Source of the DNA: Cyanophora paradoxa CCMP329
Taxonomy: Eukaryota > Plantae > Glaucophyta
Assembly (NCBI GenBank): GCA_004431415.1
Contig: QPMI01000075.1
Span: 54,642 to 118,641 of the forward strand
Length of the DNA: 64,000 nt
Reading direction: 5' to 3'
The notes beneath the pieces were generated by a model. The model did no database searches and was not told where the DNA came from. It worked only from the letters and a program-made list of their open reading frames with translations. Made by a program: the position numbers and the translations under genes. Within the stretch, counting starts at the first letter, position 1, and every line of letters starts with the position of its first letter. Of this stretch, positions 19,105-64,000 are shown one piece after another.

Positions 19105-19150
19105 TAATATCACTACCTACGGGGGGTTCGCCCCACCATAGTCTCTCAAA
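19105..19150 (+). repeat. Hairpin-containing ~45 bp repeat, copy 1 (short A tail)
   Basis: taatatcactacctacggggggttcgccccaccatagtctctcaaa, one mismatch to the copy at 30503. Confidence 0.85.
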
Positions 19151-31125: not shown

Positions 31126-31180
31126 AGCCCGGGGGCCTCTCCCCTCCTTGCATCCCCTGAAATGTGCACAGCAGCTCTCG

Positions 31181-31272
31181 CGCTGCACTACGCGCCGGGG
31201 AACGCGAGGAAGGAGGCCCGCCTCTCGATCGCCGTCACCTTCTTCGCGGACGGCGCGAAGCTCCTCCCCAAG
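31181..31272 (+). pseudogene. Fragment of a PhyH dioxygenase gene (inverted match to 44755-44846)
   Basis: LHYAPGNARKEARLSIAVTFFADGAKLLPK versus LHYAPGNATKEARLSIAVTFLADGAKLLPK; DNA nearly identical. Confidence 0.85.
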
Positions 31273-31562
31273 CCCTCGCATACGCAATGCGGATTCGCGA
31301 TTCGCGATGGATGCGCACGCCCAGTTCCTGAACTACTGGTCCGGTAATGCACATGAAGGCGGGCGCCAGCATGCGCAAGCTCGCGCAAATCGAACTGACC
31401 CAGTCCGGCTCGCCATCCCCCCCCCCCCCCCCCCCCCCCCCCTACTTCGGCTAGCCTTGTAGCTGGCTAGCTAGCGAGCAAGCGCCGGACCGGTCCAGCT
31501 ACAGGCTACAGGCTACAGGCTACAGCTGCAGCCCCGCGCGGGCGCGGGCGTCGCGGTCACGG

Positions 31563-44257: not shown

Positions 44258-44610
44258 GTCCTTGCGGCGGCGATGACGGGTCGCATTAGGCGGCCCGCGC
44301 GTCCTCTAGGCAGATTCGTGCCGTAGACACGCAGCCCATGGAGCGCGGCGCATCTCGGCGCACTTTCAGTAGCTGATATTGGTAGTTGCGTGTCAGTTTC
44401 AGTTTTGCAGTCAATCTAAGCGCATTTCCTCTTTCGCCCGTGGTGCTCGATCGGAGGGGCCACGTGCCGCTCGCTCTGGCGGGTTCACAGTGCGACCTGG
44501 GAGGCTGGATCCCGTAATAGCACTGCAGCAGTCGCCTTCGAACTCCTTCTCCATCCCCTATCGCTCCGCCCCGAGCCCGCTCCCTCTACGCAGTGACGGG
44601 TTTCTGCTCT

Positions 44611-46506: not shown

Positions 46507-47886
46507 ATGGCCTCCAGCGAGAGCGGACCCACGGACGCGTACGCGTGCATCGTCGGCGCCGGCCGCATCGGCCTCGCGCTCGCCGAGATGGACTCGGACA
46601 AGTCCTGCATGATCCGCCGCGGCGAGACGGTGCCTGAGAACATGGAGGGCCCCATCTACGGTGCGACATTCTCCTCATTAGCCTCTCAGCTCGTCTCGTA
46701 AGCGCCCCCGCCGCTCCGGTCGCCCGCAGTGTGCACCCGCAACGACGACCTCGACGCTGGTGCGCCGCGTTAGATGCCGCCGCCCGCGGGCCGCGCCCGA
46801 CTGCCCCGCGCGCCGCAGTCATCCGCGCGACTCCGGAGTCGCGCCGCAAGGACCTCGTGTTCCTCCAGGCTCGCCCGGGCGCCGCCCGCGCCGCGTGCTT
46901 CGCCTCCGCCGCCGGCGCTGACGCCGCGGCGCCCGCAGAACGGCATGCTCGACTCGTACCTCCGCTCGAAGGGCCTCGAGAACAACACCCAGGTCGGGAG
47001 CGGCCCGTGCTGCGGCGGAGTCCGCGCCTTATCCGCGGGGCGCGCGCGCGCAGGCCCTCGTGTACTTCGCCGTGCAGCAGAAGGGCGACGCGCCGACGGA
47101 CGGCGGCCTGACGGTCGCGTGGGGCAAGTGGGCGGAGCACTTCGCGGCGCGCCTTTCCAAGGGCGGAGTCAAGTGCCGCGTCATCAAGGAGAAGGCCGAC
47201 TACGACAAGATCATGGTTCGAGCCCCGGCGGGGCGGTTCCTGGGCACCCGGCCCACCGTACCCCCTTCCAGGTCGAGAAGCTGCTCTGGATCGCCGTGAA
47301 CGGCTGCCTCGGCGGCAAGTACGGCCTCCCCTGCGGTGCGCGCCGGCGTATCCCTACCCCCTATGAAAGCCTCCCGTATCCCCCCGAGCGCCGGCGCAGG
47401 CGTCATCGCGCGGGAGCACCGCGAGGAGCTCGACGAGCTCACGATGGAGCTCGCCGGTGAGGGGGATACGCCGTTCTCACTCCGCGCGCCGTACCCCCCC
47501 CATCTCAAATGACGCCGTACCCCCAGGCGTGGCGGAGGAGGCGCTGAAGCTGAAGCTCGACCCGGGCCTCTGCCAGCGGCTGGGTACGCCCTCCAGCTAG
47601 CCAGCCAGAAGGCTCCGGGCCGCCCCGACGCTCAACCCCCCCCCTCCCCCCTCCCCCCCCTCCCCCCCCCTCCCCCCTTCGCCCGCAGTGGACTACTCGG
47701 GCAGCGTCTCGCACTTCATGTGCTCTGTGAAGGTCCGTACCCCTCCCTCGAGCTCCGCGTCTCTTCCTCCCCCGCTTCTTCCGGTTTTCGCTGCAGGAGT
47801 TCGAGTGGCGGAACGGCTGGTTCGTGAAGCAGGACACGAGCCCGCTGCACATGCAGTATCTCCGCGCCCTTGGCTTCGTGAACTGA
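46507..47886 (+). CDS. Ketopantoate-reductase-like Rossmann protein of the conserved algal/plant family (multi-exon)
   Basis: IVGAGRIG, GPIYVCTRNDDL, DLVFLQNGML, EKLLWI, VKEFEWRNGWF. Confidence 0.8.
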
Positions 47887-48540
47887 GGGCGGGGAGTGGG
47901 CCGGCTCGCCCGGCTCGCTCAGCTCCTCAGCGCCTCGCTCCACTTGTTTCTTTCTTTTCAATTGATCATGAGCTTCAGAGGCTGCAATTATACGGCACTA
48001 GATCTTCCAGGGCGGCCGGGCGGGTTCTAGAGGATCTCCGGCGCCGGCGCTCTTAAGGACTCCGGGAGGTGTCTCATGGTCAGAGTAGCTCAGAGCAGCT
48101 TGTTATAAGAGAGGAGAGGAGCCCGGAGAGCCAGGCGCTGAGCTGCCGCAGTGCAGTTGATTGCGCGACGTCGACCGCATGCACGCAACGTCGCAACCTC
48201 GCTCGTGCGGCCGCACCTCAGAATTTGATTGCAATTGCTAGAATAGCCTCGCAATTGCTGATATATATCGAGATGGCACTTTTGCTGCTTTTATATAGGT
48301 GGGCTCTTGCCAAAGGTCGAGCTCTCGAGCTTGCCCCTTCGCTGTCAATGCATTGTTAACCCTCGGAGGTTCGATGAGTCACGCGTCATGGAGGTTTGGG
48401 TGTTATATTGCGATCAGGTACGCCCCGCACTAACAGGGGGGCTAGCACTAACCGACGCGGGGAGTAACAGCCGACGTACCCCCAGGGGGGCCCTCCCGGC
48501 CTCTGACTAGGCTCAGGCTCTAACTGAATTCTGTACCCCC

Positions 48541-49263
48541 TCACTGGCCGAAGTGCGACGGTCCCCACTCGAGGTCGGGGTCGGGCCTTGGGGGCCTCCG
48601 GCGGGGTACGATGCTCCCGCTTGCCAGCTCCATGTACTCCCCCACGGGGTTGTCTTCGTCTGCAAGGTTCGCGTAGTTGCCCTTTACGAGATCCGCCGCC
48701 GCTTTGCGCCAGCGAACGGCCACGTTGTACGTGTTGTCGATGATGTTCTGCACTGTACCCTCCATGGGTATTAGGGACAGCCTATAGTCGAGGTTTCTCT
48801 TACGCAGGTTCAATTCCCTTTCGTAGTACTCCACTGCGTCTGGGAGGGCCCTGAGCTCCACCGCGTGCTCGCCCGGGTCCGACGAGCTAATGAGCCCGGA
48901 GCGCTGCAGTGCGTTCACAGCCGCCCGCAACACGATTTTGCCTACCCCCCGCATCGAATCCCTCTGCTCGGGCGTCCCGTATTCCCCCTGCGGCCCGTAA
49001 TCGTTGTAGTAGCTTTCTATTTCGACGGTGGCTGGTTTATTGCCGACCTGAGGCTGGACGGAGCCGTACACCCATGCCATAGCGTCATTGTCCGCTGAGC
49101 GGGCTTTCTTGGAAGGGGGCGGCAGCACTTCGATTTTGAACTCCCTGGTCCGTCGGTTGACGAGTGTTTTTAGATTGAGGGGGAGGCGCGTATCCCCGAA
49201 TTTATCAGGAAAGAGGCGGTGTAGCTTAAACCACGCTTCCTGATCACCGTAGGTGTACGACAT
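48541..49263 (-). CDS. Putative GNAT acetyltransferase (intronless)
   Basis: Acetyl-CoA motif A-like MRGVGKIVLRAAV followed by VELRALPDAVEYYER; NLS-like PPSKKAR. Confidence 0.6.
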   Translation of the reverse strand: MSYTYGDQEAWFKLHRLFPDKFGDTRLPLNLKTLVNRRTREFKIEVLPPPSKKARSADNDAMAWVYGSVQPQVGNKPATVEIESYYNDYGPQGEYGTPEQRDSMRGVGKIVLRAAVNALQRSGLISSSDPGEHAVELRALPDAVEYYERELNLRKRNLDYRLSLIPMEGTVQNIIDNTYNVAVRWRKAAADLVKGNYANLADEDNPVGEYMELASGSIVPRRRPPRPDPDLEWGPSHFGQ

Positions 49264-49300
49264 TTGCTCGCGGCTCGCTGAGAATTTATACCTGTACCCC

Positions 49301-50002
49301 CTACTCGCGGTCGGGGTACCTGTCGCCGGGCATCAGCCTCGCGCGCTTGCGCAGCTCCGCCTCCCCGGGTAGCCAGTTCTTCGGGTCGTTGCTCCACTCC
49401 TCCCATTCGCGTATGTCTCGCCTGACGTCACGTGGGGCGGGGGCGTTTATCGGTGGGGCGGGCGGGGCTGGCAGGGCCAGGGGCGGGGGGTTGAGGCCCC
49501 TGTCCCACGAGTACTCGGGGTATCTGTCCCATCCCAGGGGTACCAGATGTGCTGGAATCGGCTCGACGTCGTAGTTGGGATCTCTGGCGTTATGATAGTC
49601 ATAGCTCGTGACGTACTTCGTCACGGCCGAGCGCAGGCGCGAGAGGTCGCGCCTATTTACGTCGTCCCGTTCCGAGTCCCTTGCCTTCGCGTACCACTGG
49701 AGGATTTGCATTCGAATGTGGTCCGGGAGGGTCGAGAGAAAGCTGAGCTTGGAGCCCAGGGCGAACCAAATGCGCTTGAACTCATCGATAATCCTGCCCT
49801 CATTGTGGCTTCGAAGGTAGTGGGCCCCGCCAGCGTTGTAATGGCCGTCCAGCCACCCTTCGTTAGCCAGCCTTAGCACCGCCCACGGGACGCGCGGTCG
49901 ATTCGGTCGCGAGGCCTGCTCAACCACCCAGCGTCTAAGGTCCTTGACCTGATCTATGAACTCCGCGATCACGTCCTTGGGCGCTTCCTCTGCAGCCGAC
50001 AT
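49301..50002 (-). CDS. Hypothetical protein (intronless, ~233 aa)
   Basis: Clean ORF with protein-like composition, ATG 50002, Pro-rich linker, preceded by the element's upstream motif. Confidence 0.65.
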   Translation of the reverse strand: MSAAEEAPKDVIAEFIDQVKDLRRWVVEQASRPNRPRVPWAVLRLANEGWLDGHYNAGGAHYLRSHNEGRIIDEFKRIWFALGSKLSFLSTLPDHIRMQILQWYAKARDSERDDVNRRDLSRLRSAVTKYVTSYDYHNARDPNYDVEPIPAHLVPLGWDRYPEYSWDRGLNPPPLALPAPPAPPINAPAPRDVRRDIREWEEWSNDPKNWLPGEAELRKRARLMPGDRYPDRE

Positions 50003-50054
50003 TTGCAATTGCACACATCAAGAAATTCTAAACGCTACTGCGAAGCTAGGAGCT

Positions 50055-50708
50055 ATGGACTGCGAGACTTGCGAGAACTTGCAACAGGGGAGCGCGGCGT
50101 GGCACGCGGCGCGCCGTGAAAAGCTAACTGCCTCGAACTTTGCGGCTGCGTGCGGCATAAATCCCTGGAAATCCAGGGCCCGCCTCTGGGCGGAGCTAAG
50201 CGGGATAGCGGAGGAAAACAACTTTGACAACCCTGCCCTAACCTATGGGCATGACTATGAGCCCCTCGCGGTCTCTATCTACAAGGCACTGAACGATAAC
50301 GTTGACATTAAACATACTGGACTGCACGAACATAAAGAAATGCCGTTCCTCGCCGGTAGTCCCGACGGACTTATAGGAAATGATAGAATTTTAGAGGTGA
50401 AATGCCCGTACAAGGGCGAACTTTATGATAGAGTTCCTACCTATTATATGCCTCAACTGCAAGGACTTCTGGACATCACGGGCCGCGAGTGGGCCGAACT
50501 TTTTTGCTTCACTCCTCTGCGCGTGCAAACGTGGTACGTCAGGCGCGACGAGAGGTACATCGAGCTCATGAGGAAGTGCTTACAGCTATTTTGGATGCAC
50601 GTAAAGGCGGGGACTCCGCCCGAGCCCTACAGCGATCGAATGAAGTCAGAGAACCTCAGCGAGGAGCAGCTAGCGCTTAGGGAGTTCAAGACGTACGCGC
50701 TGATGTAG
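50055..50708 (+). CDS. YqaJ-like viral recombinase / lambda-exonuclease family nuclease
   Basis: QGSAAWHAARREKLTAS, YGHDYEPLA, FLAGSPDGL, LEVKCP, YYMPQLQGLL. Confidence 0.93.
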   Translation: MDCETCENLQQGSAAWHAARREKLTASNFAAACGINPWKSRARLWAELSGIAEENNFDNPALTYGHDYEPLAVSIYKALNDNVDIKHTGLHEHKEMPFLAGSPDGLIGNDRILEVKCPYKGELYDRVPTYYMPQLQGLLDITGREWAELFCFTPLRVQTWYVRRDERYIELMRKCLQLFWMHVKAGTPPEPYSDRMKSENLSEEQLALREFKTYALM

Positions 50709-51152
50709 CGGCTCAGGCCCAGGCCGGGTAGGCGAGTCTGTAATGAATCAGACCGCGCAGGATTTGGTTGAGCTGCTCGGTGCAGGGGGGCGGGAAGGCG
50801 AGGCCGCGGAGGGCCATAGAGACGTAGCGGAAGGGGTGGGGGAGGCGGCCCCTGTTATCCCACATGGCGTCCACTATGGCGTTGTGGACCATTTGCTCGG
50901 AGAGGGGCCGGAGGGCGGGGCGGGCCTGCGCTCACCGTCTCAGTGTCGTTCAGTGGCCCGGGAAGTCGTCCTCGGGGCTGAGTACCGGCGGCATGTCATC
51001 GTACGGCGAGTTGGCGACGGCCGAGGTTTACGCCTCGCTTCATTCGAATGCAGAAGACCTAGCTATCTTACGCCTGGCACTACTTAGCTAGATGCACGGG
51101 ATAGCGCATCAGGTTGGGCCCTGAGGTACGGCAGCTCAAGGCTGCTTTCCCG

Positions 51153-52140
51153 GGAACCACGTATCATAATACGTTGGCGATCGACCAGGGCGGATCGCCG
51201 TATGCCATTCCGGCCTCGCCCTTGCGAGTTCCGGAACAAGAACTCTCCGGGGTAAGCGCGCTAGGCGCCTGTACCCCGGGGAGGGCCGTTGCGGGTCGAG
51301 ACGGTGTACCCCGCTCGGGGGTACTCCTCTCGGGGCCGTCGCGGGGCCGATCGGGTACCCCGCTCGGGGGTACACTTGATCGGGGCCGCTCTGACGCCGT
51401 ACCCCTCTCCGGGGTACGCGTTCGGCCTCGGGCCGCGCCTTGTGGGGCCGGTTGGGGCGAACAGCGTACCCCGGGGAGGGGTACGCGGTTTCTTCCGGGT
51501 TCGGGGATCCGAAGCCGGGTACCGCCGCCGGAGGCCGCGGGGGTGAGCGTAGCGAACGCAGCACGAATGCAGTACCCCCTACCACGCGCATAGCGTGTCC
51601 GTCGTCCGCAGACGACCATGAGACCAAGGGGTCGTACAACATACGACAACCGAGGCTCATCAAAAACCAACAGGACTCCGAAACATGCGCGAAGTCTCCC
51701 CCCGCGCCGGGGCGGCAGACTCGAAAACCCAGCAAGTTACCGCGGGAAAAACCGCGTAACGGTCATGCGCTGGACCCCGGCTCGGCACCCGCGGGTCCAG
51801 AGGAAAAACAGGGTAAAACCCAGCGGTGAAAACCCGAGATTCTCCACGAAGCCGCGCGACTGTTTCTTGGGGGCGCGCTGGACCCCGGCCCGGCACAAGT
51901 GGGTCCAGCGGACGCGCGTGGAAAACGAATGACGACCGGTACACCGAGTCTGCGCGGTTCGTGCCCGAATCTTCGACGGGACTATTGTAAATTACCACGG
52001 ATCAGCTGTGCACGACCACGTCCGCGCTGGTGGCCGGCACCGAGCGGGAGTAACATCCGGAACCGTGTGCACAGGAGACGACAAGGAACCACGTATTATA
52101 ATACCCTCGGCGAACGCTGGCGCTGGTCGCCGTATGCATT
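51153..52140. promoter_or_regulatory. Hairpin- and repeat-rich non-coding spacer, candidate origin or recombination region
   Basis: Two ~55 bp structured copies (51153, 52085), GTACCCC..GGGGTAC palindromes (51270-51484), and two CTGGACCC/GGGTCCAG stems (51770, 51878). Confidence 0.5.
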
Positions 52141-52523
52141 GCCTTTTTTGCGCGAACTTTTTGCGGCGCCGGGGCTCGCTGGGTGGCGAGGTTCGGCGCC
52201 CCGGAAGGAAAAATCGCGGGGAGGTGGGCGGGAGCGATTTCGCTTCGCCGCTGGTCGCTTCGTGGCCTGGAGCGGCCGCGAGCGAAGCTGGGCGTGAAGG
52301 GAAACCCCGAATCAGCGTACCCCCCGGAGCTCGGCGGCTTCAAGCCCGCCGGCTCGGCCCAACGGCTAGCTCAGCTAGTCCCTTGCGGGACGCTCGCTGC
52401 AGCCTGCTGCTTATCCCGTGCTCGCCTCGCGCCGCTCCGCGGCTAGCGAGTCGCTCAGCTCTTTCGTGCCTGGCGCTCGGCTACGGTCTTCTTTGTTCGC
52501 ATTCCGTCGGCGCAAAACTCGAT

Positions 52524-55255
52524 TTACGCATTGAGAGCGCAAATCCCGACCTGCGACGGCGGCGGCGAGCCCGGGGCGGCCGAGCCCTGCGTGGCGAGGG
52601 CCGCCGAGCGCGCCGAGGCGAGCGAGGCCTGCGAGGGTGCCGGCTCCAGCTCCATGTCGAAGACGCCGCCCTCCACGGCGACGGCGACGGGGACGACGGG
52701 CGGCGAGGCCGGGATCGCGCGGGCCTGCTGCGTGGCGGGGACCTGAGCCGAGAAGTTCTCGAGCCGCCACTCGCGGCAGCCCGGGCACTCACCTGGACGA
52801 GGGGCTCGCGGTTGGCGACGGGCGGCGTCGGCAGGGCCTGCGTGGGGCGTCACTTACAGAAGCCGAAGGCGCCGGCCTTGTGGGGCGGGGCGTCGGGGTC
52901 GCGGGGCGTGCTATAGGCCTCCGAGCCCTCCGATTCAGAGTCACTCACCGGGCTGAGAGGGTGGGGTGAGAAGAGGCCGAGGCGGGCCTTCTTGGCGGGC
53001 AGGAGGTGGGAGCCGTTGAGGGCGCAATCGGCGCGGTGGGCACACCTCTCTCCGTAGGTGGGGCAGAGGGCCGGGGCCGAGGGCGCCGGAGCCAAGGACG
53101 CCGGAGCCGAGGACGCCGGGGGCTGGAGGAGGCGGTGAGAGGGGCCGAGGAGGAGAGGAAGGGGGAAGGGCGCGGGCACCGGCGCCTCGACGTCCCAGTC
53201 CGCCAGCTCGGGGAGGCCGTGCTCGTCGAACGCCAGCGCGGGCCGCCCGCTGAAGCCGAACGGGGCGGGGGGCGAGAGCGCGTTGTCCCCGACGCCCCAG
53301 ACGGCGCTGAACGCCGCATCGTCCCAGCGCGCCTCCGCCTCCGCCTGGCCCTCGTCCCTTGCCTCGTCCACCTCCTTGGCGGAGAGCGACCCGATCTTGA
53401 TGATGGAGGCCTGGATCAGCACAAACTCGCGCTGGAAGAATTGGACGAGCGGGATGGTAACTGCGGGAGAGGGGGTGAGCGGGGAGAGCGCGGGGCGCAG
53501 GCCAAGGGCGGGGGCGCAGGCCAAGGGCGGGGCGGACGCACATTCGATGCCGTAGGCCACCTCCTTGATGTAGCGGCCCCGGCGGCCGATCTCCTTGGCC
53601 AGCATGCTGCACTCCTTGCGCGCCGGGTGGCCGTGGCCCCACTCCATGGCGATCATCGCCTTCGCCAGACGGACGCCCTCGATGTGCCACTCGTCCATCA
53701 GCGCCTCCAGATTGGCGCAGATGCGCATCCAGAAGAAGACGCGCTTGAGCTTGTCGCGGTCGAATTCGGCGTCGCCGCTCTTGCTGCCCCAGTCGCGCAG
53801 GTCCGTCTCCTCCGCCTTCTTCACCTTGTCGTACCAGCACTTGATCTTCTCCGCCTGGCGCTGGAACTCGTCCGCCCGCGCCGTGAGAACGTCCGACTCC
53901 TCCTGCGCTCCGAGGGCCCGGGTCAGGGAGGAGAGGCGGGCTAAGCGGGGCGGCGGCGGACCGTGTGCGAGAGCTCGCCGACGATCACGGAGATGGCCGC
54001 CGAGAGGATCTCACGGGCGCGGGCCGGCCCGTTTGGGTGGCCCTCGCGCAGAACCTCCTCCAGCTTCAGCACGGCCGCCCGCGCGAGATCGCGGTGGCGC
54101 TGGCGGGCCTCGTCGCTCCGGCCCTGATCCACGAGAAGCTGGAGCTGGGGCCGCATGCCGGAGTCGCAGACGCTGGCGTACTTCCGAAGGGCCGCGCAGG
54201 AGAGCACCTTCTGCACGCTGACCAGCCAGTACGCGTAGCCCAGCGGGCTCTCCGCGCTCGGGTTCTCTCCGACCTGCGGACGCGACCTTAGCGCGCGCAG
54301 GGGCAGGGGAAAGGGGAAAGGGCGGGCTCTCGCGCACGTAAATGTCATCGGCGCAGGAGAGGAACATGTGATCAACGACGTCGAAGAAGCCGCCGGACGG
54401 GAGCGTGCCGACGCCGTGGTACGCGCCTTGGATGGTCTCACCGGCGCAGATGCCGGCCTGGACGGTGACGGTGTACTGCGAGGCCGGCGGCCCCTCCTTC
54501 ACGTAGACGAAGTTGAGGTCGTACTTCTTGGCGTACGTCGGGTTGATGCGCTTGGTGACGATGACGTAATCGCACCGAACGCCGAGGCCGGACGGGCTGG
54601 CCTTCTCCTTCTCCGTCACCGACGCCAGGCACTGATCCCGCGCGATCAAGAGCTGCGGCGGCCCGCGCGTGAGCAAGCGCGGGCACGCGAGCGCAGGGAA
54701 GGGCCCTCACCCCGTGGGCGCCGCCGCTGCCGGATTTGAGGTCCGCGAGGAACTCCTTCTGCTCCGGAGTGCCGGAGAAGATCGCGCGCGGATGGAAATC
54801 GCGATGGAGCGCGATGCTGTTGAAGCAGCCCGCCGCCGCATTGTCGGACATCAGCAACAGCGCCACATCGCCGTGCGTGAAGCCGTACTTCGCCTTCACA
54901 TACTCCGGCAGCTCGTGAATGCTGTAAGGCACGATCTGCGCGCGGGGCACGCGAGCCGGGGCATGTGAGCCGGGGCCGAAGCGGTGCGGGCGAAACCGCG
55001 AACCTCGTTGAACTTATTAACCGGCGTGAACTGGCCCTTGGTCTTCAAGCGCTTCGGGTGGCCGTCCGTGTTCTGGATCTTCTTCAGCCCGCCGAACGGC
55101 TCGAAGCGCGGCACGCCGGCCGAGTTGAACACGCTATCGTAGGTCATCGCGTTGAGCGCCTCCTCCGCCGATAGGCTGCCGAGATCGCGGGCTATGCTGT
55201 CCTGCTCGCCGGGCTGCTGCTGCTTCGCGCAGGAGCGGAAGGTCGCCGCCTGCAT
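52524..55255 (-). CDS. Intron-containing element protein with possible 2OG-Fe(II) dioxygenase-like domain (3' end uncertain)
   Basis: Exons join from MQAATFRSC; contains CFNSIALHRD (HxD) and IQGAYHGVG (distal His), then a helical region and a low-complexity tail with PAKKARL. Confidence 0.55.
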
Positions 55256-55550
55256 GGTGGTTGTTACTGCCAGTGAAGTGCAACACCTCCAACGGATTCC
55301 GTTCACGGGTCGTACCCCGCACTGGCTTGCCCCCCCCCCTAACTCGCGAAGACTCAGACTTGAAGCGCGCTTCTCCCCCCGTCCGCGTCGCGTACCCCCC
55401 CAGGCTGCAACCCCCCGTCGGTTTCTCGCTTTTTCTCTCTGGCGATGCAATGCAAGCCGCTCGTTCAAACCAGCTGGAAACTTGGCGCCAAAGCCTTCGC
55501 AGCCCGCGCGCAGCACTCGCAGCAGCGGCGGCAGCAGCAGCGGCGGCGGC

Positions 55551-56930
55551 ATGTCTCGGCTCGCGCTCCCTCCGGAGATCCCGGCTAAGCTGGCGAGGAA
55601 CACGCTGTACGACGTTCTCTGCATCGGCGACAGCTTCGGCATCGATTGGACGGTTTTCGAGGCCGGCATCAGCGACCAGGCGAAGGAGGCGCAGGCCCGG
55701 GCGCTGGAGGATGGCATGCAGTTCAGCCCGAACAGCAAGGATGTGCTGCGCAAGACCGAGCTGGCCGAGCGCAAGCGCAAGCTGGCCGCGGCGCAGACTT
55801 TGAACGCCGAGGGTGCCCCCGGCCCGTCGGTGCAGTTCTCCATCGACTCCGTCCTGTCGCGGCTGCGGCTCGCGGAGGTGCTCGCTGCCTCTTTCTCTCT
55901 GCGCTCGCAGCGGCTGAGGCGCCGCGGCGCATCGCAGGACGCGGACGTGCGGGCGATGCACGCGGCGCTGAACATGACGGAGGAGAACTTCGACACGCCG
56001 AGCAAGCCGAAGCCCGGGCGCGATGCCGACGCCCGCCGGCTGTTCGCGGCGCAGCGCCTGCGGCTGCTCATGGGCGCCGTGCCCCGGCACATCGCCAAGG
56101 GCGAGTGGCGCACGATTGGCCTGCTGACGGGCCCGGAGGAGTTCTACTTCAACCGCATGGCGGAGGCGGCCGGGCACCTGCTCTGGCTGCTGGTGCTCAG
56201 CTCGGACCCGGCCTACAAGCCCGAGGTGCGCCCCAGCCGCCCGTGCAGCCGCGACCGCCCCTCCCCGCCGACCCCGCCGGCCCGCAGATGCTGGCGAAGG
56301 GCATCATGGGCATCGAGGTGCGCTGCATCAAGAAGAACAGCCGCGACTTCATCACGCGCCACGAGAGCTCGGCGGTCTGGGGCGAGCGGCCGGACACCGG
56401 CGTCCTCACCGACGCCTACGCCATCCGCATCGTGCTGGAGGCGGCCTGCCGGACGTGCCGGGACCGCCACGGGCGCCAGGGCATCTGCGCCTTCGACCTG
56501 GTTCCGGAGTTCGAGGTGCCCGGCGTCACCATCGGCGACCGCGTGCAGGTGCGCCGTTTCTATTTGGATGCTATTTAGATGCTATTTAGACTATTTAGAT
56601 GCCATTTAAACCCCCTCGCAGGTCATCCGGCGGTGCTCGATGCCGGACTCGCACGGGCGCCCCATGATCCACGGCGCCGTGAAGTACGTGGTGCCGCGGC
56701 GCACCCTCGCCCTCGCCTTCTTCGTCCCCGTCTTCGACAAGGCGGCCGCCGCCGCCGCCGCCGCCGCCTCCCGCCCCCGCCCCATGCTCGCGGCCACGGA
56801 GTCCTCGGATTCCGGCTCGGATTCCGAGGAGGAGCGCGACGCCGAGGCCGCCGCCGCGGCCCGGGCGCTGGACTTCACGGAGGAGGAGCTCGAGCGGGCG
56901 CGGAGCCTGCGCGCGCCGGCCGGGAGATGA
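55551..56930 (+). CDS. Intron-containing hypothetical element protein (CxxC motif, acidic tail)
   Basis: Four exons join in frame from MSRLALPPE to ..LRAPAGR*; CRTC motif; its TGA overlaps the next ATG. Confidence 0.65.
56561..56610. repeat. 11 bp tandem repeat (TATTTAGATGC)n inside an intron
   Basis: tatttggatgc tatttagatgc tatttagac tatttagatgc catttaaa. Confidence 0.8.
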
Positions 56931-59900
56931 CCGCCGTCTTCAAGGCGGCGATCGGCGAGGCGACGGCCTCCGCCTCCGGCGACGGGGCCGGAGTTAGCAA
57001 GATCACGGCGGAGGGCCTCGCGCGCGCCATGCGCGTGGCCCAGGCCCAGGCCCAGGCGAAGGGCAAGGGCAAGGGCAAGGTCGCCTACATCAACCTCAAG
57101 TTCGAGAAGGAGGACGTGCCCGCCCCGGCGGCGCGGCGCGATCTCGGCGAGCAGATGGAGGCGGCGGCCCCCAAGGCGGCCGGCCCCGAGCCGGCCGGTG
57201 CGCCCTCCCCACCCCAAAATTCTGAGCCTAGGGCGTTCCGGCGCCGCAAAGGAATGACCCTGCCCACAGAGGAGGAGCTGGAGGCCGAGCGCGAGATGGA
57301 GGAGGAGGCCGCGCTGGCGGCGGCGGCGGACGCGAAGGCGGCGCGCGAGCTGGAGGTGGCGGAGGAGTACGCGATGGAGCTGGAGCGCGAGCGCGAGCGC
57401 GAGGGCGAGGCCGACGCCGAGCTGGCGGCGGCGGCGGCGGGGGACACCTTCGAGCCCGAGCCCCCGTCGACGAGTTCTACCCCCTCCCGCCCTCCCCCTC
57501 CCTCGAGTACGCCCCGCCGCCGCCCGTGGAGGAGTTCTCGGACGACGAGCCCGGCGACGCTGGCCCCAGGCCGCCCCTCGTCTCCCCCCGCCGCCCGCCC
57601 GCCCCCGTGCCCCCCGCCAGCCCCGCCGCCTCCGACGTCTCCTGGCGCCCGAGCGGCAACCCCTCGGCCTTCAGCCCCGTCCCGCCGTCGCAGCGCTCGC
57701 AGCGCTCGCAGCGCCCGCCGCCCTCCGTCCAGGGTACCCCCCTCGCCCGCCCCATCCCCTCGCCGCCGCGGGGCACGCCCGTCGCCACGCCCGTCTCCTC
57801 CCTCGGCCACATGCCCCCTCCGCCCCCTCCGGCCCCCCGCGCCGGCCGCCTCTCCCGCCGGGCCCAGCAGCGGCGCGAGCGCGAGCGGCAGCTGCTGCGC
57901 GATCAGCGGGCGGAGGCGGAGGCGGACCACGACGACGGCCAGGCGTCGGAGAGCGACGGCGAGCCGCCGCGCGCCACCAGGCTGGAGCTGGCGCGGGCGG
58001 AGCTGGCGGCGCAGCCGCGCGAGGCGCCCGAGATCGACATGTCCAAGTACGACGACGTGACAACGTACAGCAAGGACAACAAGTCGAGGAAGGAGGCGGC
58101 CATTCAGGATGCGCTCCGCCTCTTCGTCAAGAACAACGTGCGCCCCGCCCCCCTTAGAGGCCGGAGGCGGCCGTGGCCCAGCTGCGTAAGGCGCTGGGTC
58201 CGAGCCGCCTTCGGCCGGTGCGCCCCCCTCCCGCGTTCGAACCCCGCTAACCCCCTTTTGCCGGCGCAGCGGATCGTGCGCCAGAGACCCTACGGCCCGA
58301 ACTCCCCGCCCACCTTCTACGTCGAGCTCCCGAACCTCTTCGTGTACGACAAGGTCAGCGCGAACAGGCACGCCGGGCGCGGGACGATGAAGGAGGTCAT
58401 CCAGCTGCTGGCGATGACCTTCCACAAGACCTACGAGTCCAGCCCCGGCTCCTTCGAGTTCACCTTCTCGAAGGAGGTGCTCTCGGGGCGGACGCGCACG
58501 TTCGTGGAGGAGTCCCTCCAGCTCGAGGACGTCTGCCCGAGATGCCCGTCATCCCCGGCTTCGCCTTTGCCTGCGACACGCGTGCGCCGCCCGTACCCCT
58601 GCGCCCCGCCCCGTACCCCGCCGACGCCCCTTGCGCAGATTTCGTGGTGCGGGCGCCGCAGGACAGCACGGGCAGCGCCTGCACCCTCGTCATGTCGCAC
58701 GAGGAGGCACGGGAGCGGTACGCGGGCTACATGAACACCTGCTACATCCAGGGGCGCCTGCCCGCGGGCATCGAGGAGGCGGCCGAGACGTGCGACTGGC
58801 CCGCCGTGTACGGTATGCTGCATCCCTTCATGCCCAACGTCGTCAAGCACCTGGCGGACAACGGCTACGTGACGGCCGACGAGTTCGGCTACGCGGCGGC
58901 CGTCCTCTACGCCTTCAACCTCGTCGGGCCGTGGAACTTCTGCGACAAGCCCGTCTTCGACCGGGAGCCGCGCGCGGAGATCGAGCCGCCGTCCGAGGCG
59001 CCATGCTGCAGTACTGCGGCATCATCAAGGGCCAGTCGGGCACGGGTGCGCCCCGCCCCCGCCTTTCCCTCTTCCTTTTCCTGAGACCCCGCGCGCGCAG
59101 GCAAGTCGATGGTGACGCAGATCATGACGGAGTGCCTGCCGCCAAGCCGCGTCTGCGTCTACCGCCCCTCCAAGGGCTCGGCCTTCTCGGAGCACGGCGG
59201 CGAGGAGGCGATCTGCATGGTGATGGCGGAGGGCCTCGACCCTAAGGCCTGCTCGGAGGAGGAGCTCAAGATGCGCTCCGGCGACGCCTACTCCCGCAAC
59301 TTCAAGAACGTCCGCGGCGACGACGTGCGCACCAAGGCGACGCGCAAGGTGCTTGTCATCGTCTGCAACAGCTTCCCGCAGGTGCGCCCGTTCCCCTTCC
59401 CCTCCCCGGCGCCCTTTCTCACTTGCCCCGGCGCAGCTCGAGAACCGCATGCTCGAGTTCTTCGCCCGCGTCGTCCTGATCCCCCTCGACCACAAGCCGG
59501 CCAAGAAGCGCACCTACCTCCACTCCGACATCCGCGAGAACGAGCTGCCGGCGCTCATGGTCGCGGCCTTCACCTTCGCGTGGAAGATCATCCACGCGCT
59601 CTCCGACGGCAAGGCCTCCTGCATCCAGGCCTTCGAGCCGGCGTGGCTGCGGGCGCAGCGCCTCGGCTTCTGGCAGGAGACGGCCTCCTGCCCCCTCACC
59701 CGCTTCATCATCACCCACTGCGCCGTCGACCCCACCACCTACGTCGCCGCCCCGAACACGGAGGGCTGGATGACGAGCGTCGCGGGCATCGTCGAGTACA
59801 TCGCGCGCACGGAGGGCCCGGACACCTCCGCCGCCGTCGGCGCCGACATCGAGAACGGCCGGCTGGACGAGACCCTCGCCGGCTTCGGCTCCTGGTGCCG

Positions 59901-60755
59901 CCTCTACTCCTACAAGCTCGGCGGCATCTGGCAGACCTACATCCGCGGCATCGCCCCCAAGGCCCCGCTCTCCCTCGGCGAGAGCCAGCCGGCGCTGGAG
60001 GCGATCGCGATCCCCGTCGCCCAGTTAAAGGACCCGGTGGACGACGTCGGGCCCTTCCTCGTCAAGCCCCACACCAAGGGCAAGGGCAAGCGCACCCGCA
60101 ACTCGGCGCCGGCCTTCCTCCCGCCCCAGCCCCCCGCCACGGCCCCCCAGCAGCGCCCCGGCCAGCAGCGCATCGACGAGATGCTGCCGCGCCAGGTCCG
60201 GCCCCGCGTACCCCCCGCCTTCCCTGTACCCCCCCTCCCCTCGCCCCCCTCCTGATCCAAGGGCAGGGTACCCCGGCGAACGGCGGCGCGGGCCCGAGCG
60301 GCCACGGGAGCTCGGCCTCCCCCGTGAGCGCCGACGGCCCCAGCCCCGTCCCCGGCCCCGGCGCCGTCCTCTCCGCGATCCAGGGCTTCGGGGCCCAGCA
60401 GGAGGCGGAGCGCCGGGCGGCGGCGGTGCGGCAGGAGCAGGAGCGGGAGCAGCGGCGCGTCGGCCTCTGGCACCAGCGCCAGGGGCAGGTCCTCGCGGAG
60501 CGGCTGGACCTGGAGACGGGCGTCCGGACGGGGCAGGTCTCGGGCACCGATGCCGTGGCGCGCTGGCGGGCGATCGAGGCCGCGACCGTGGCGCTGGCGG
60601 AGCAGCTCGGCTACAGCTACCGGCGCGTCGCCGTCCCGCACTCGTACGGGCGGCGGGCGGCGCGGGAGGCCTCGCGGGCGGATATCGACGCGGCGGAGGA
60701 GGTGGCGGCGGCGACGGAGGCCCACGCCCAGACCTTCCGCCACCTCCACCACTAG
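56927..60755 (+). CDS. D5-like superfamily 3 helicase (multi-exon; apparent 1-nt frameshifts)
   Basis: Walker A GQSGTGKS after removing intron 59046-59100, Walker B-like ICMVMAE, motif C VIVCN, Arg-finger region FFARVVLIP; long acidic/Pro-rich N-terminus. Confidence 0.8.
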
Positions 60756-60808
60756 AGCGGCCGCGGGCTAGGTATTTTTTCTCAACCCTCCCTCAATTCG
60801 GTCCCGCG

Positions 60809-61000
60809 ATGGCCCTCGCTGACTCGTATCCTGCCCATTATAGCCTTGGAGCCCTCGCCGCGACCCTCACCTGGCTCCTCGGCGGCACCCCCACCGCCTC
60901 GGCGGTCATCGGCGTGGGCTTCGGCTACGCCGCCAAGACCCTCTACGCCCCCGGCTCCGTCTCGATGGCGACGGCCGGCATGCGCCCCGCCGGGCGCTAA
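60809..61000 (+). CDS. Small hydrophobic protein (63 aa)
   Basis: Two hydrophobic Gly/Ala-rich segments; upstream TTTTTTCT motif. Confidence 0.55.
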   Translation: MALADSYPAHYSLGALAATLTWLLGGTPTASAVIGVGFGYAAKTLYAPGSVSMATAGMRPAGR

Positions 61001-61113
61001 CTTTTCCCTTTTCAAAGTTTTCCAACGTTCATTCCCCCTTTCCCTTTTCCAAGTTGCTCAAGTCCGTCGACGTTCCCTTTTAAATTTTCTTCATTCACGT
61101 TACACGTCTGAAC

Positions 61114-61611
61114 ATGCCGAACGCCGTAGAGAAGCTGTTGTGTACAGTGTTCAAATCGGACTCGCGCTGCAGCAAGATCGGCGAGGCTGCCAAGGGCGGG
61201 GGCGGGGCGAAGGCCGGCGGCGGGGCGGAGGGGCCTAAGATAAGGGGCGCGGACCCGGCGCCGCCGGCGCTGAAGTCGATTAAGGCTGCGGGCAAGGGCC
61301 GCGGCGTCGGGCCCCTGCCCCTCGTAGCGATCGCCCCCGGCCAGAGGGAGGCGGCACACGCGGCGACGGCGGCGCTGGCCTCGCAGCAGCAGAGGGAGGG
61401 GGCGCCGCGCCTGAGCGCCGGCCTCTGGTCGCAGCCTGCGCCCGCGCGCGAGTACGGCGTCAGCGCCTTCTTCGACGGCGCGAACGAGCTTAGCCGCCAG
61501 GAGATCTGGGCCTGGGAGGCGCGGCGCGCGGTCGACGGGCACCTGCCGCTGCTCGTGGCGCTCGGCGGCTCGCTCCTGATGGTCTGGTACCTGCGCGGCC
61601 TCGCGATTTAG
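61114..61611 (+). CDS. Hypothetical protein with C-terminal TM helix
   Basis: Intronless ORF ending LPLLVALGGSLLMVWYLRGLAI; upstream AAATTTTCT. Confidence 0.65.
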   Translation: MPNAVEKLLCTVFKSDSRCSKIGEAAKGGGGAKAGGGAEGPKIRGADPAPPALKSIKAAGKGRGVGPLPLVAIAPGQREAAHAATAALASQQQREGAPRLSAGLWSQPAPAREYGVSAFFDGANELSRQEIWAWEARRAVDGHLPLLVALGGSLLMVWYLRGLAI

Positions 61612-61637
61612 ATAGATTTTCGGAGTCTAGGGCAAAG

Positions 61638-62039
61638 ATGGGCTGGGTAGACGGCCTCCTCACCAAGGTCTTCGGCCCGAAGAGCGCGCAGCCGCCGCCG
61701 AGCTTCAACCTGGCCGCGGCGATCAGCACGACGATCGAGCGCAAGAACAACGAGCTCATCCTCAAGAACGACGGCAAGCTTCCCTGGGCCGACGTGGCCG
61801 CGGGCGCGCTGGGCAGCACGTTGACGGGAATTGATCGGACGGGCGCCGCGGGCGTGAAGGTCGGGCAGGCGGTTGCGGCCGTGCCGGAGCTTGCGATGAA
61901 GGGCTGGCACTACGCCAAGATCGCCGCCGGCGTCGCCGCGGTGCTCCTTGCGATCTGGCTCGCGTGGCAGCTGCGCGGCGCCTACCAGGGCGCGCGGCTT
62001 CAGAGCGCGCAGCTCGACTATTTTCTAAAGGCTAGGTAA
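61638..62039 (+). CDS. Hypothetical membrane protein (MG start, amphipathic N-terminus, C-terminal TM)
   Basis: MGWVDGLLTKVFG..IAAGVAAVLLAIWLAWQL. Confidence 0.7.
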   Translation: MGWVDGLLTKVFGPKSAQPPPSFNLAAAISTTIERKNNELILKNDGKLPWADVAAGALGSTLTGIDRTGAAGVKVGQAVAAVPELAMKGWHYAKIAAGVAAVLLAIWLAWQLRGAYQGARLQSAQLDYFLKAR

Positions 62040-62051
62040 AGCGGGCGAACC

Positions 62052-62429
62052 ATGCCCCGCGGCGGCTCTTCCCCCCGTGTCTCCTTCGCTGAGGAGAACG
62101 CAGCGGACGCTACCCCCCTGGAGCCCGGCGTCAAGCTGGAGCGCGCGAACGCAGTCTCCACCAAGAAGGCCAAGCGCGCGCTGATGCTAGCGGAGGAGAG
62201 CCCAAAGGTGCAGCAGGAGAGTCAGATCATCGCATTCAACAAGCGCAAGACGTACAAGGCGATACGCGAGGGCCAGCTGCTGCCCACGGACGCGGTTCCC
62301 GGCCTGCCGGACACTACGGCCGGCGAGCTCCTAGTGCGCAACCTGCGCCTGCAGTACGTCTCCCGCCTCCGCCGCTCCAAGGCCAAGAAGGCGCGCCTGG
62401 ACTCGGGCGATAGCAGCGCTAGCTCGTAG
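62052..62429 (+). CDS. Basic hypothetical protein with RVxF motif and NLS
   Basis: SPRVSFAE near the N-terminus; RRSKAKKARL near the C-terminus; 12 bp after the previous stop. Confidence 0.65.
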   Translation: MPRGGSSPRVSFAEENAADATPLEPGVKLERANAVSTKKAKRALMLAEESPKVQQESQIIAFNKRKTYKAIREGQLLPTDAVPGLPDTTAGELLVRNLRLQYVSRLRRSKAKKARLDSGDSSASS

Positions 62430-62445
62430 GGCTTTGTACTCAATA

Positions 62446-62730
62446 CTACCAGTTCCTGTTCCTATCCCAGAGCACGACTCGGGTAAAGGGCACGGTCATA
62501 GCGAACATGAACTCGGCAAACTTGGAAAAGTTCATGAGGGTCCCCAGGCGCGGGTCCTCCCAGTAGATCGCTTCGCGCAGGGCCTCGTAGATGCGCATGA
62601 GGGAGCGCTCGTTCTCGGTCGCGAAGGCGTCGGAGGGCTCGTCCGGGTCCGGATCCGAGAGCTCCGAGTACTCGTCCGAGCTGCCCGCGCTCTCGACGCC
62701 TGCGGCCGGGTCGGGCGAGGGGTCAGCCAT
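62446..62730 (-). CDS. Small acidic hypothetical protein
   Basis: Intronless 94 aa ORF with upstream ATTTTCT. Confidence 0.6.
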   Translation of the reverse strand: MADPSPDPAAGVESAGSSDEYSELSDPDPDEPSDAFATENERSLMRIYEALREAIYWEDPRLGTLMNFSKFAEFMFAMTVPFTRVVLWDRNRNW

Positions 62731-62757
62731 TCTTAAAGCTAGGGCTAGAAAATCGGA

Positions 62758-63096
62758 CTAGCGCCGGTACTCCATCGAGTCGCCGCGCCAGTACTTGTTG
62801 CCGGAGGCGAGCAGCTTCATCGGCTCGCCCGTCGAATCGTGCGTCCAGGCCTCGCCCGTCCAGACGGCCGTGCCGCCGTCCTCTAGCTTGAGGCGGTGGC
62901 CCGCCTCGAGCCGATCGCCGTTGAGCATGCGGCCGGCCATGAGCGCCAGGTCCCACTCGGTGAGGCCGCGCTGCTCTTCGGGGGTGAGGCCGCGCTCGAC
63001 GCGCTCGGGCTGGCGCGCCTCGCGCTCCATGCGGCTGAGGCCCACTAGGAAGAAGATCGGCAGCGCAAAGGCCATGAGATCTAGCAGGGCCTCCAT
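62758..63096 (-). CDS. Hypothetical protein with N-terminal TM helix
   Basis: MEALLDLMAFALPIFFLVGL; upstream CTTTTCT. Confidence 0.65.
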   Translation of the reverse strand: MEALLDLMAFALPIFFLVGLSRMEREARQPERVERGLTPEEQRGLTEWDLALMAGRMLNGDRLEAGHRLKLEDGGTAVWTGEAWTHDSTGEPMKLLASGNKYWRGDSMEYRR

Positions 63097-63107
63097 TGAG
63101 AAGGGAC

Positions 63108-63398
63108 TTAGAAAAGGTTCCGGGCCAGGCCCGAGAGCTGCGGGCCCAGGCGCCGGGCGGCGTAGTAGAGCGCGGCGGCCGCGGCGGCCAGGATCAGGAG
63201 GCGAGGCGGGCCGCGCGCGGGCTCCTCCAAGGTCAAGTCCACGGTCTCGGGCTCGCGCGCCGACGTTGCCAGGATCTCGGGCTCGGAGCTGAGGGACTTG
63301 GGCCCGCGGCGGCGGCGCTGCTTGGGAGCGGAGGCGGCGGCCACAGAGAGAAGGTCCTCGGGCTCCTGCTTGATACCTGCACAGTCAGCAAAGTCCAT
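63108..63398 (-). CDS. Small protein with SUMO-site, NLS and SIM-like motifs and a C-terminal TM helix
   Basis: ATG 63398: MDFADCAGIKQEPE..PKQRRRRGPK..ETVDLTLEE..LLILAAAAAALYYAA. Confidence 0.6.
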   Translation of the reverse strand: MDFADCAGIKQEPEDLLSVAAASAPKQRRRRGPKSLSSEPEILATSAREPETVDLTLEEPARGPPRLLILAAAAAALYYAARRLGPQLSGLARNLF

Positions 63399-63568
63399 GC
63401 TTGCTGGGTACCTTGGAAAATTGTGATAGCTCACGTGAGCGCTCAGCTGAAGAGGGGGGGAGAAGTGACGCGGACGCGTCCCAAACCCGTCACCGTCACA
63501 GCGCAAGAGACTTGGACTCGGGGTCCCGGCCAAATTCTCGCCGGCAAAAAATCTAGGGGTACGGCCAA

Positions 63569-64000
63569 ATGACTGCTATCCCAGCAGAGAGGGAGTTCCT
63601 GTCCAACGCTATGAGAAGGGCAGAGGAGCTGGAAGTGCAGAAGGCCATGCGCCTAGCGCTCAGCGGCTCGCTGGAGAACCAAGGCAGGAGGCTGGCATTA
63701 GAAGAGGCAAAGGCGCGGGGCGCTAGCGCAGACGAGCTAAGCCAGTTCGACTGGGGCCCGCAGCGCTTAAGGCCCGGAGGCCAGGCCGGCCAGGTCTTCC
63801 CGGCGCCGCCGGCGCGCTCGCCTAACGATGTGTTGAACCTGCAGTTCAACTACCAGACAATGCTGAGCACGATAGAGGAAGCGGGCTGGCAGCTTCCCGA
63901 CGCCGTGCGCGAGCGCATCGCTTACTACGTCTTTGGAGAGGGAGAAGAGCAGCTGTGGAAGCTCACAAGGGGCGTGTTCGCGGGGCTGTTCGGCGAACCG
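63569..64000 (+). CDS. Hypothetical protein, open to window end (absent from ORF track because it has no stop)
   Basis: MTAIPAEREFLSNAMRRAEELEVQKAMRLAL..; 144 codons without a stop; upstream AAATTCT. Confidence 0.65.
   Translation, partial: MTAIPAEREFLSNAMRRAEELEVQKAMRLALSGSLENQGRRLALEEAKARGASADELSQFDWGPQRLRPGGQAGQVFPAPPARSPNDVLNLQFNYQTMLSTIEEAGWQLPDAVRERIAYYVFGEGEEQLWKLTRGVFAGLFGEP

Follow-up and report, generated by a model that had tools for sequence, protein, structure and literature searches.

A multicopy element of Cyanophora paradoxa with two spliced genes among motif-bearing intronless genes: a candidate Polinton-like endogenous virus

The right-hand part of the window analyzed here (a 64,000-bp stretch of the genome of the freshwater alga Cyanophora paradoxa) holds genes with host-style introns set among compact intronless genes, and the question is what kind of genetic element carries such a mixture. 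A sequence-only reading had proposed a nucleus-replicating integrated virus with spliced early genes and unspliced late genes. Note that small integrating DNA viruses of protists have been catalogued on an intron-free premise, and endogenous Polinton-like viruses (PLVs) are treated as intron-free (PMC10120064), and the replication strategy of most PLVs is described as undetermined.

A multicopy element with a sharp left end

The locus is a discrete unit with dispersed multicopy integration. In the data of two studies, the single-copy host contigs stop at 48,321 (depth 17 and 133) and contigs to the right reach depths of 643 and 4,213, a sharp rise of about 30–50-fold; subtracting 30 to allow for 31-letter words places the left end at ~48,292 instead of the 48,400 given before. 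Free viral DNA was rejected as the source of the high depth, which genomic copies account for. Element gene models were found on 50 C. paradoxa contigs, with 28 helicase (H) and 30 J models in one genome; J adjoins H on 16 contigs, and gene order is kept on all 29 contigs bearing at least two element genes. The search for other genomic copies thus returned dozens of copies rather than single-copy syntenic host orthologs. The copies are 52–100% identical to one another, and many are truncated or tandem. Between 48.5 and 64 kb, we count 13 genes (Table 1), namely, 11 intronless (L1, L2, YqaJ and R1–R8) and two spliced (J and H), so that the dense packing over more than 15 kb described earlier stands and its count of at least 14 ORFs becomes 13 genes plus one doubtful ORF.

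Table 1. Features of the element, in positions of the window
Feature	Position	Strand	Description
Multicopy element	48292..64000	.	Left end inferred at ~48,292; right end beyond the window
L1	48541..49263	-	240 aa, intronless, KKAR present; earlier read as GNAT
L2	49301..50002	-	233 aa, intronless, no family
YqaJ	50055..50708	+	YqaJ/lambda-exonuclease family nuclease, 217 aa, intronless
Doubtful ORF	50713-50892		59 aa, additional to the 13 genes
3' end of J	50950..51026	-	True 3' end, orphaned by the insert (25 residues and stop)
Insert	51027..52549	.	Non-coding, 1,523 bp, four short palindromes (51305-51487)
J	52550..55255	-	9 exons, 8 introns; frame of 719 codons, open as far as the insert
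J/H promoter region	55256..55550	.	Divergent, 295 bp, without WWTTYY
H	55551..60755	+	10 exons, 9 introns; 1,523 codons with the four 1-nt gaps included
Walker A intron of H	59046..59100	+	55 nt; in some genomic copies, absent from many
R1–R4	60809..62429	+	63, 165, 133 and 125 aa, intronless, motif-bearing
Antisense intron	61591..61663	-	GT-AG with canonical ends, spanning the R2/R3 boundary; RNA contigs lack it
R5–R7	62446..63398	-	94, 112 and 96 aa, intronless, motif-bearing
R8	63569..64000	+	>144 aa, motif-bearing, cut by the window end

The window covers the left part of the element, and within 48.3–64 kb neither a capsid (double jelly-roll major capsid or penton; Pfam and PHROG) nor an A32 ATPase or pPolB was found. 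No integrase matched in the window (Pfam, PHROG and NCBIfam), no TIR or TSD was seen in it with only the left end included, the 15.7 kb covered contained no NCLDV core gene, HK97 capsid or transposase, and Rfam gave no match anywhere in 48–64 kb. IMG/VR scans with YqaJ and with the H and J alignments returned no related loci, a metagenome search with YqaJ gave four matches, all weak, and R8 found no relative, none longer and none in metagenome or IMG/VR contigs. Two IMG/VR matches to R3, with ~30 residues aligned on tailed-phage-like contigs, were rejected as chance.

Intronless genes and their upstream motif

YqaJ is the sole element protein with a curated-family match, and its earlier assignment is confirmed by Pfam PF09588 (E 1.9e-28, 100.1 bits, cut-off 22) and TIGR03033 (E 1.2e-27, 96.9 bits, cut-off 68.05), with phrog_434 at 5.7e-40. 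The GNAT acetyltransferase resemblance proposed for L1 was not recovered by any profile or PDB search (Pfam, NCBIfam, PHROG and PDB). In the right block, the C-termini of R2 and R3 are hydrophobic, R6 has a hydrophobic stretch at its N-terminus and R4 is basic; three of its eight ORFs contain a 19-mer with hydrophobicity above 1.6, in line with the often membrane proteins described before, and the KKAR-type NLSs ascribed to several proteins correspond to a KKAR string in 3 of the 13.

The intronless genes are also distinguished by a WWTTYY motif, located 19–36 nt upstream of the ATG in all 11 ORFs, absent from the spliced genes (0/2) and host ATGs (0/6) and carried by 9 of 272 other ATGs. Across 20,000 shuffles, this motif, defined after inspection of these same sequences, reached at most 5 of the 11 ORFs. 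For the separate promoter proposed for the intronless genes, the distinct upstream motif is a candidate. The early/late timing is unsupported, because the ‘late’ motif also precedes YqaJ and the right block is itself covered by RNA contigs, in part through an antisense spliced RNA. Indeed, the R ORFs are unspliced as had been read, yet the block as a whole is not free of splicing, given the antisense RNA across R2/R3 (joint 61588-61662, depth 473 and 365, with a shorter side of only 25 letters).

The spliced genes J and H

The 17 predicted introns of the element are GT-AG, have a median length of 62 nt (10 host introns of the window, 66.5 nt) and match those of the host in size, GC and ends. 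At least 12 of them are spliced out in RNA contigs from three studies, which bears out the host-style introns noticed in the central genes: all nine in H and, among the 15 joints listed, at least three of eight in J (53961-53903, 53541-53461 and 52948-52838, skipped in X15 and X18). Runs were counted as RNA by splicing of the host RPL35 intron, which is kept in DNA contigs, and not by record. Introners were considered and rejected, as pairwise comparison of 13 element and 10 host introns (leaving out four element introns found later) gave best scores of 30–44 and no repeat family; the 13 element introns are not alike, the highest local score among them being 36. In H, eight of nine introns have no DNA-level skip in X9 and thus look common to the copies. 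The one inside Walker A is skipped in DNA contigs at depths of 446 (X1), 2,643 (X2) and 698 (X9); RNA of X17 shows the intron-less allele, X15 and X18 the GT-AG spliced form, and the peptide is identical with either allele.

Three spliced genes had been described, and only two exist, since the ‘hypothetical’ and the ‘helicase’ are one H gene of ~1,520 aa (sister models 1,435–1,519 aa). Its four 1-nt gaps (56909, 57460, 58535 and 58996) are all filled in read contigs, and decay of the family was rejected on this ground; among the sequences listed, 21 synonymous to 30 nonsynonymous changes against ~1:3 sites indicate a modest synonymous excess. H comprises an unassigned N-terminal domain, an acidic/Pro-rich linker, a D5-like SF3 helicase and a likely winged helix. 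Walker A, Walker B and motif C lie within ~110 aa, and tblastn against phages gave 11 weak matches (E 0.04–10), all on the P-loop region and 10 of them annotated as primase, helicase or polymerase. Using hhalign, three phage proteins, two of them annotated primase/polymerase with DUF5906 domains, aligned at probabilities of 83.5, 39.7 and 78.2, with Walker A and motif C aligned in all three and Walker B in register in one. These comparisons, chosen after the fact and each weak singly, agree with one another, and suggest that H is an SF3/D5-like helicase, a putative replicase of Polinton-like type, as had been read.

Other searches gave little on H. Pfam returned only AAA_22 (E 0.003–0.17), and no primase (AEP/Prim-Pol) or PolA domain was detected in H, which would therefore probably rely on host or other polymerase functions. 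Among 1.84 billion proteins, 18 matched H (59–97% identical) and none was an NCLDV D5 at E 0.001 or better; all 18 look like sister copies, so that H has no close counterpart among the catalogued PLV helicases. The AlphaFold model of the H core has a pLDDT of 36, and Foldseek found no match for it at E 0.001 or better, the top BFVD row being an NrS-1-like helicase (E 0.022). The C-terminal winged-helix region (pLDDT 57–75) compared best with RFX5 (Z 5.6, rmsd 3.6 over 80 residues) and also with the P4 origin-binding domain (Z 3.5), both below the trust level of the tool. PDB sequence searches gave no match.

J, for which 22 homologues were found, consists of an N-terminal part with HxD (128-130) and His238, a helical region and a Pro-rich tail. 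The HxD and His238 have a JmjC-like (KDM4-like) look, and on this resemblance a predicted Fe(II)/2-oxoglutarate enzyme countering host silencing is plausible, if short of probable. Of the aligned copies, which are 90–98% identical, 12 of 15 and 15 of 15 retain these residues, with no structure placing them together (AlphaFold pLDDT 30). No JmjC or dioxygenase match was found in Pfam, NCBIfam, PHROG or PDB, so the dioxygenase-like family read earlier was not recovered. The ‘structured spacer’ between the blocks is in fact a 1,523-bp insert in the last exon of J, and was rejected as the origin of the element. A joint 51026-52550 in DNA and RNA contigs restores the J frame, 24 of the 27 third positions of the 3' piece, counting from that joint, are G/C, and the sister model P0050 has the same C-terminus. 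An X1 contig of depth 730 begins exactly at 51,027 and joints skip the insert, which is likely an independent repeat, separate from the element.

Nature and significance of the element

The data show the multicopy state, the conserved order, the sharp left end, splicing, the motif, YqaJ and the SF3 motifs in H. We lean towards an endogenous virus of Polinton-like type, of which this locus is one among dozens of dispersed copies and whose J-H pair would serve as a maintenance module that is spliced and expressed. In this reading, host RNA polymerase II and the spliceosome would express J and H from integrated nuclear copies; H would bind an origin via its predicted winged helix and unwind the element for replication; J, if an Fe(II)/2-oxoglutarate enzyme, would counter host silencing; and the genes that bear the motif, encoding the nuclease and small membrane or basic proteins, may be co-regulated as a second programme serving the productive phase. 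Genes for capsid, packaging ATPase and integrase would be expected past the right edge of the window. Of the integrated nuclear virus proposed earlier, multicopy integration, helicase with YqaJ, and nuclear splicing hold, and viral status stays a hypothesis.

The element resembles PLVs (Polisuviricotina) in multicopy protist integration, an SF3 helicase replicase, a nuclease, compact small ORFs and the host species. PLVs carry primase-helicases (PMC10120064), YqaJ appears in the legend of one PLV map, Glaucocystophyceae PLVs have been reported (PMC12220804), and PMC10120064 lists 366 PLV-type capsid genes in C. paradoxa; the element may already be listed in the supplements of PMC10120064, PMC6704402 or bioRxiv papers. 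In contrast to PLVs treated as intron-free, it has 17 introns in two expressed genes, H lacks a detectable AEP or PolA, and capsid, ATPase, integrase and TIR were not seen in the window; none of six contigs representing those capsid genes, a small sample of the 366, is among the 50 element contigs. With the phage D5/P4-type primase-helicases (D5_N, DUF5906, Pox_D5), H shares Walker A, the Walker B region, motif C, a downstream motif and a likely C-terminal winged helix, but at ~23–31% identity over ~110–125 columns, with no Prim-Pol detected and ~700 extra N-terminal residues.

The two-module architecture is not unprecedented, because the Chlamydomonas GEVE punuivirus combines latency genes rich in introns with virulence genes driven by a motif (10.64898/2026.10.09.758095). 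Both express intron-bearing genes in ordinary culture and place intron-poor ones behind an AT-rich motif, and the TET dioxygenase proposed there as an anti-silencing factor parallels the putative JmjC reading of J. However, punuivirus is a single 506-gene nucleocytovirus with proven virions and an RNA polymerase of its own that likely transcribes the motif genes, whereas the element has a small gene set, is multicopy, uses a different motif and is known from genes and RNA alone. The KDM4-like JmjC genes of Amoebidium GEVEs, proposed to counter heterochromatin, keep their introns and, like J, are multi-exon and transcribed among intronless viral genes (PMC11244446), but were identified by Pfam and phylogeny, whereas J has no Pfam match and is only tentatively JmjC-like. 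Spliceosomal introns in dsDNA virus genes are also found in intron-rich mirusviruses, often in late genes (PMC12768974), unlike the J and H location here, and in dinoflagellate PLVs as repeated introners mostly gained post-integration (PMC12166617), unlike the 13 dissimilar introns tested.

An unlikely alternative is a giant DNA transposon of transpoviron-, Tlr- or giant-repeat-like type, encoding a helicase but no capsid, which spreads in the nucleus and gained host introns because it never leaves: the 15.7 kb without structural gene, the many truncated and tandem copies, the 17 host-type introns and a 30–50x depth explained by genomic copies without free DNA all suit it, but eleven compact ORFs, several hydrophobic, sharing a non-host motif fit a virion or lytic programme better, and no transposase was seen in an element that runs on past the window. 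We consider it distinctly improbable that the locus is a piece of some larger endogenous virus, either a Nucleocytoviricota GEVE or a mirusvirus, that has been amplified. For such viruses, intron-bearing early and motif-driven late genes, YqaJ, D5-like helicases and AT-rich promoter motifs are known, as are spliceosomal introns in mirusviruses and punuivirus, and GEVEs are reported from C. paradoxa (PMC12344493). It would be unusual for giant genomes to occur as dozens of dispersed copies with a single sharp left end, H has no similarity to NCLDV D5 at E 0.001 or better, and our literature search found no text linking Cyanophora and mirusvirus. Capture or domestication of J and H as a host-style pair, riding in or duplicated with an otherwise intronless element and with introns of no regulatory meaning, is very improbable: the introns match those of the host, and in Cymbomonas, transcripts with introns from PLV regions have been interpreted as host genes or as domestication, but H is related to phage enzymes rather than host families, J-H keep their position among intronless genes across copies, and eight H introns look common to the copies.

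Beyond the Polinton-like reading, we raise as a speculative and unlikely proposal an undescribed lineage of small, nucleus-replicating, helper-independent endogenous viruses, kept active by a JmjC-like enzyme and an orphan D5-like helicase constitutively expressed from the spliced module, in which an own motif would switch on unspliced virion genes and introns would still be gained or lost between copies. If this were true, replication genes of this kind would have been broken up in PLV catalogues by ORF callers that expect no introns. Copies of one element differ in the Walker A intron, with both alleles transcribed, so that a tree of the copies can tell recent gain (via the CAG already in the exon) from loss. 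Altogether, the element, if a small virus, would show on a small scale the design of host-like latency genes combined with viral lytic genes that has until now been described in giant viruses, and if a capsid is linked to it, latency through host mimicry would extend beyond giant viruses and the latent-to-productive switch would become testable in axenic culture of C. paradoxa.

Copies, boundary and gene content of the element

The element is real, expressed and multicopy. GC-rich and intron-rich host genes fill the window up to ~48.3 kb, and single-copy contigs of two DNA runs from different studies end exactly at 48,321 (depth 17 and 133). Past this point, single contigs on the right reach depths of 643 and 4,213, i.e., ~30–50x host, contig depth being a rough guide only. 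From these contig ends and the 31-letter words, we infer a common left end near 48,292. Separately from read depth, element gene models were found on 50 distinct contigs, with J at most three gene numbers from H on 16 contigs and the order J-H-R2-R3-R5-R7 kept on all 29 contigs with at least two element genes. A EukProt model labelled Cyanophora paradoxa displayed 100% identity to one helicase exon of the window.

On several contigs, two to three J or R3 copies lie within a few gene numbers (EukProt g18074/18078/18080, g23372/23374 and g1756/1757), indicating tandem or nested partial copies. At least 8 of the 28 H models (P0009, P0011, P0013, P0018, P0022, P0025, P0026 and P0028) start near one helicase point with one common foreign sequence fused on, suggesting an amplified truncated derivative. 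The H models also include a subfamily with 60–70% identity (P0010 and P0014). In both DNA runs, summed contig depth over the YqaJ region is ~4x that of the rest of the element, and the YqaJ gene may be common to other element families.

Coordinates of the features in the window
Feature	Position	Strand	Remark
Gene J (putative JmjC-like)	55255-52550	-	8 introns, 719 open codons
Gene H (D5-like SF3 helicase)	55551-60755	+	
Walker A intron	59046-59100	+	55 nt
Spacer	51027-52549		1,523-bp insert in last exon of J
Second joint	50906-52551		depth 450, side 27, X1 only
YqaJ region	50004-50670		
59-aa ORF	50713-50892	-	without upstream motif; last exon of J in several sister models
Site of J/H 38-aa segment	55620-55730		
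Points of H derivative	59612 and 59815		
Antisense R2/R3 intron	61591-61663	-	GT-AG
Host intron	46869-46938		GC donor
Host gene	44600-46187		presumably PhyH-like dioxygenase; partial upstream duplicate seems apparent by eye, ~31100-31280
11.4-kb block	19105-30552		GC 0.52; flanked by 50-bp repeat (96%), right copy ending in poly-A, resembling a LINE 3′ end; low-GC, apparently intron-bearing genes, no Pfam match (2 ORFs tested)

The gene set comprises 11 intronless ORFs (L1, L2 and YqaJ on the left, R1–R8 on the right) and two spliced genes in head-to-head transcription. The sequence-only reading had separated a ‘hypothetical’ from a ‘helicase’ gene, but both belong to H, in which four 1-nt gaps of the window are each filled in DNA and/or RNA contigs and whose sister models span 1,435–1,519 aa. 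RNA contigs skip all nine H introns with GT-AG ends (eight in all three studies, the Walker A intron in two) and at least three of the eight J introns among the 15 joints listed (178 more exist). Note that the RNA status of these sets (X15, X17 and X18) was guessed; X15 and X18 splice a host RPL35 intron that DNA contigs retain. Up to 10 letters differ between RNA contigs and the window over J and H, and therefore sister copies may be the transcript source. Element introns have a median of 62 nt versus 66.5 nt for 10 host introns, with the same ends, and comparison of the sequences of 13 element introns found no repeat family among them; genes of C. paradoxa average 9.2 introns with a mean of 86 bp, as given in the accessible text of PMC6704402. 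A 38-aa segment (47%, E 2e-7) is common to J of other copies (P0038, 574-611) and the N-terminus of H (P0002, 23-60), which explains the opposite-strand joints; it is missing from J of the window copy.

Presence/absence of the Walker A intron and the spacer

The Walker A intron differs between copies of the element: DNA contigs also skip it, at depths of 446 (X1), 2,643 (X2) and 698 (X9), similar to family depth, and X9 contigs run unspliced through introns H1, H3, H5 and H7 and cover H4 and H8 at their ends. The allele lacking the intron, set apart by a single synonymous base, occurs in X17 RNA, while X15 and X18 RNA hold the spliced form. Both alleles encode the same peptide, and either a single insertion with an exonic CAG as acceptor or a single slipped deletion explains their difference.

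The spacer is skipped by DNA (depth 69 and 609) and RNA contigs, the joint gives back 25 further J residues as at the end of sister model P0050, and a contig of depth 730 begins exactly at 51,027, thus indicating many different flanks. On these grounds, the spacer is most probably a separate repeat that cut J short in the window copy, rather than the origin of the element.

Upstream motif and protein identities

The motif WWTT[TC][TC] was found 19–36 nt upstream of the ATG in 11/11 intronless ORFs and 0/2 spliced genes, compared to 0/6 host starts and 9/272 other ATGs; when the upstream windows were shuffled one by one, the mean count was 0.83 and the maximum 5/11 (20,000 trials), and the opposite strand had it in 3/11. 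The motif was defined after the fact, with a large margin. A separate promoter for unspliced late genes had been proposed: the distinct motif agrees with it, but ‘late’ is a guess since the motif also marks the left block, YqaJ included. The right block is also covered by RNA contigs, and one abundant RNA joint (side 25) reveals the antisense intron across R2/R3; this spliced antisense RNA may be a transcript continuing out of R7-R5 or have a regulatory role.

Family searches made the YqaJ identity certain and returned no confirming match for the putative GNAT resemblance of L1. In H, the P-loop is interrupted by an intron, and Pfam gave only AAA_22 (E 0.003–0.17, in 5/7 models). Searching phages by tblastn yielded 11 non-significant matches, all at the P-loop region, 10 of which are annotated primase/helicase/polymerase and two of which contain D5_N and DUF5906; hhalign with three of them, picked after the fact, aligned Walker A and motif C (prob 83.5, 39.7 and 78.2). 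Over its C-terminal 100 residues, the H core model may be similar to winged helices of the RFX type (Z <=5.6), and a C-terminal winged helix is expected in D5/P4 helicases. Against 1.84 billion representatives, phmmer found 18 matches to H (59–97% identity), the named ones being Cyanophora models. J carries HxD at 128–130 plus His238, and its third exon is, in our assumption, reminiscent of KDM4/5-type JmjC domains; no search or fold prediction recovered JmjC in J. Of the small proteins of the right block, described as often membrane proteins, R2, R3 and R6 show clear hydrophobic stretches, and the KKAR sequence is present in L1, R4 and J.

Probable viral character of the element

In the accessible parts of the literature, PMC10120064 counts 366 capsid genes in C. 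paradoxa and describes such viruses as without introns, and PMC12220804, which includes Cyanophora Polinton-like viruses (PLVs), mentions group I introns only. The same parts report introns in KDM4-like genes of giant endogenous viral elements (PMC11244446) and in mirusviruses (PMC12768974), introners in PLVs (PMC12166617), a few spliced transcripts in PLV regions (PMC10675990), YqaJ, shared promoters and SF3 replicases in PLVs (10.1101/2022.07.28.501842 and 10.64898/2026.10.13.758929), and for the giant virus punuivirus the same two-module design; those of 10.64898/2026.07.28.741278 and 10.1101/2024.01.18.576163 held nothing further bearing on the element. In the literature searched, which covered few subscription papers, neither the element nor any PLV whose replication module is spliced was found described.

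Our analysis demonstrated that many copies of the element are integrated, that J and H transcripts are spliced in the nucleus in ordinary cultures, and that the genes fall into two classes. H would start element replication, J would counter silencing, the host being one in which repeats and viral genes are methylated (CpG methylation of 32%; PMC12344493), the motif-bearing genes would form a productive-phase programme, and morphogenesis and integration genes would be situated right of the window. Against this viral mechanism stand the many truncated copies and the lack of hallmark virus genes in the part of the element inside the window. A further point against it is that purifying selection on H, L1 and L2 is only hinted at by their codon changes (21 synonymous and 30 non-synonymous among the rows listed; 40 of 75 and 20 of 564 used).

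Altogether, we lean slightly towards a candidate Polinton-like virus, and the element resembles, in how it operates, a latent endogenous DNA virus that carries a host-style module.
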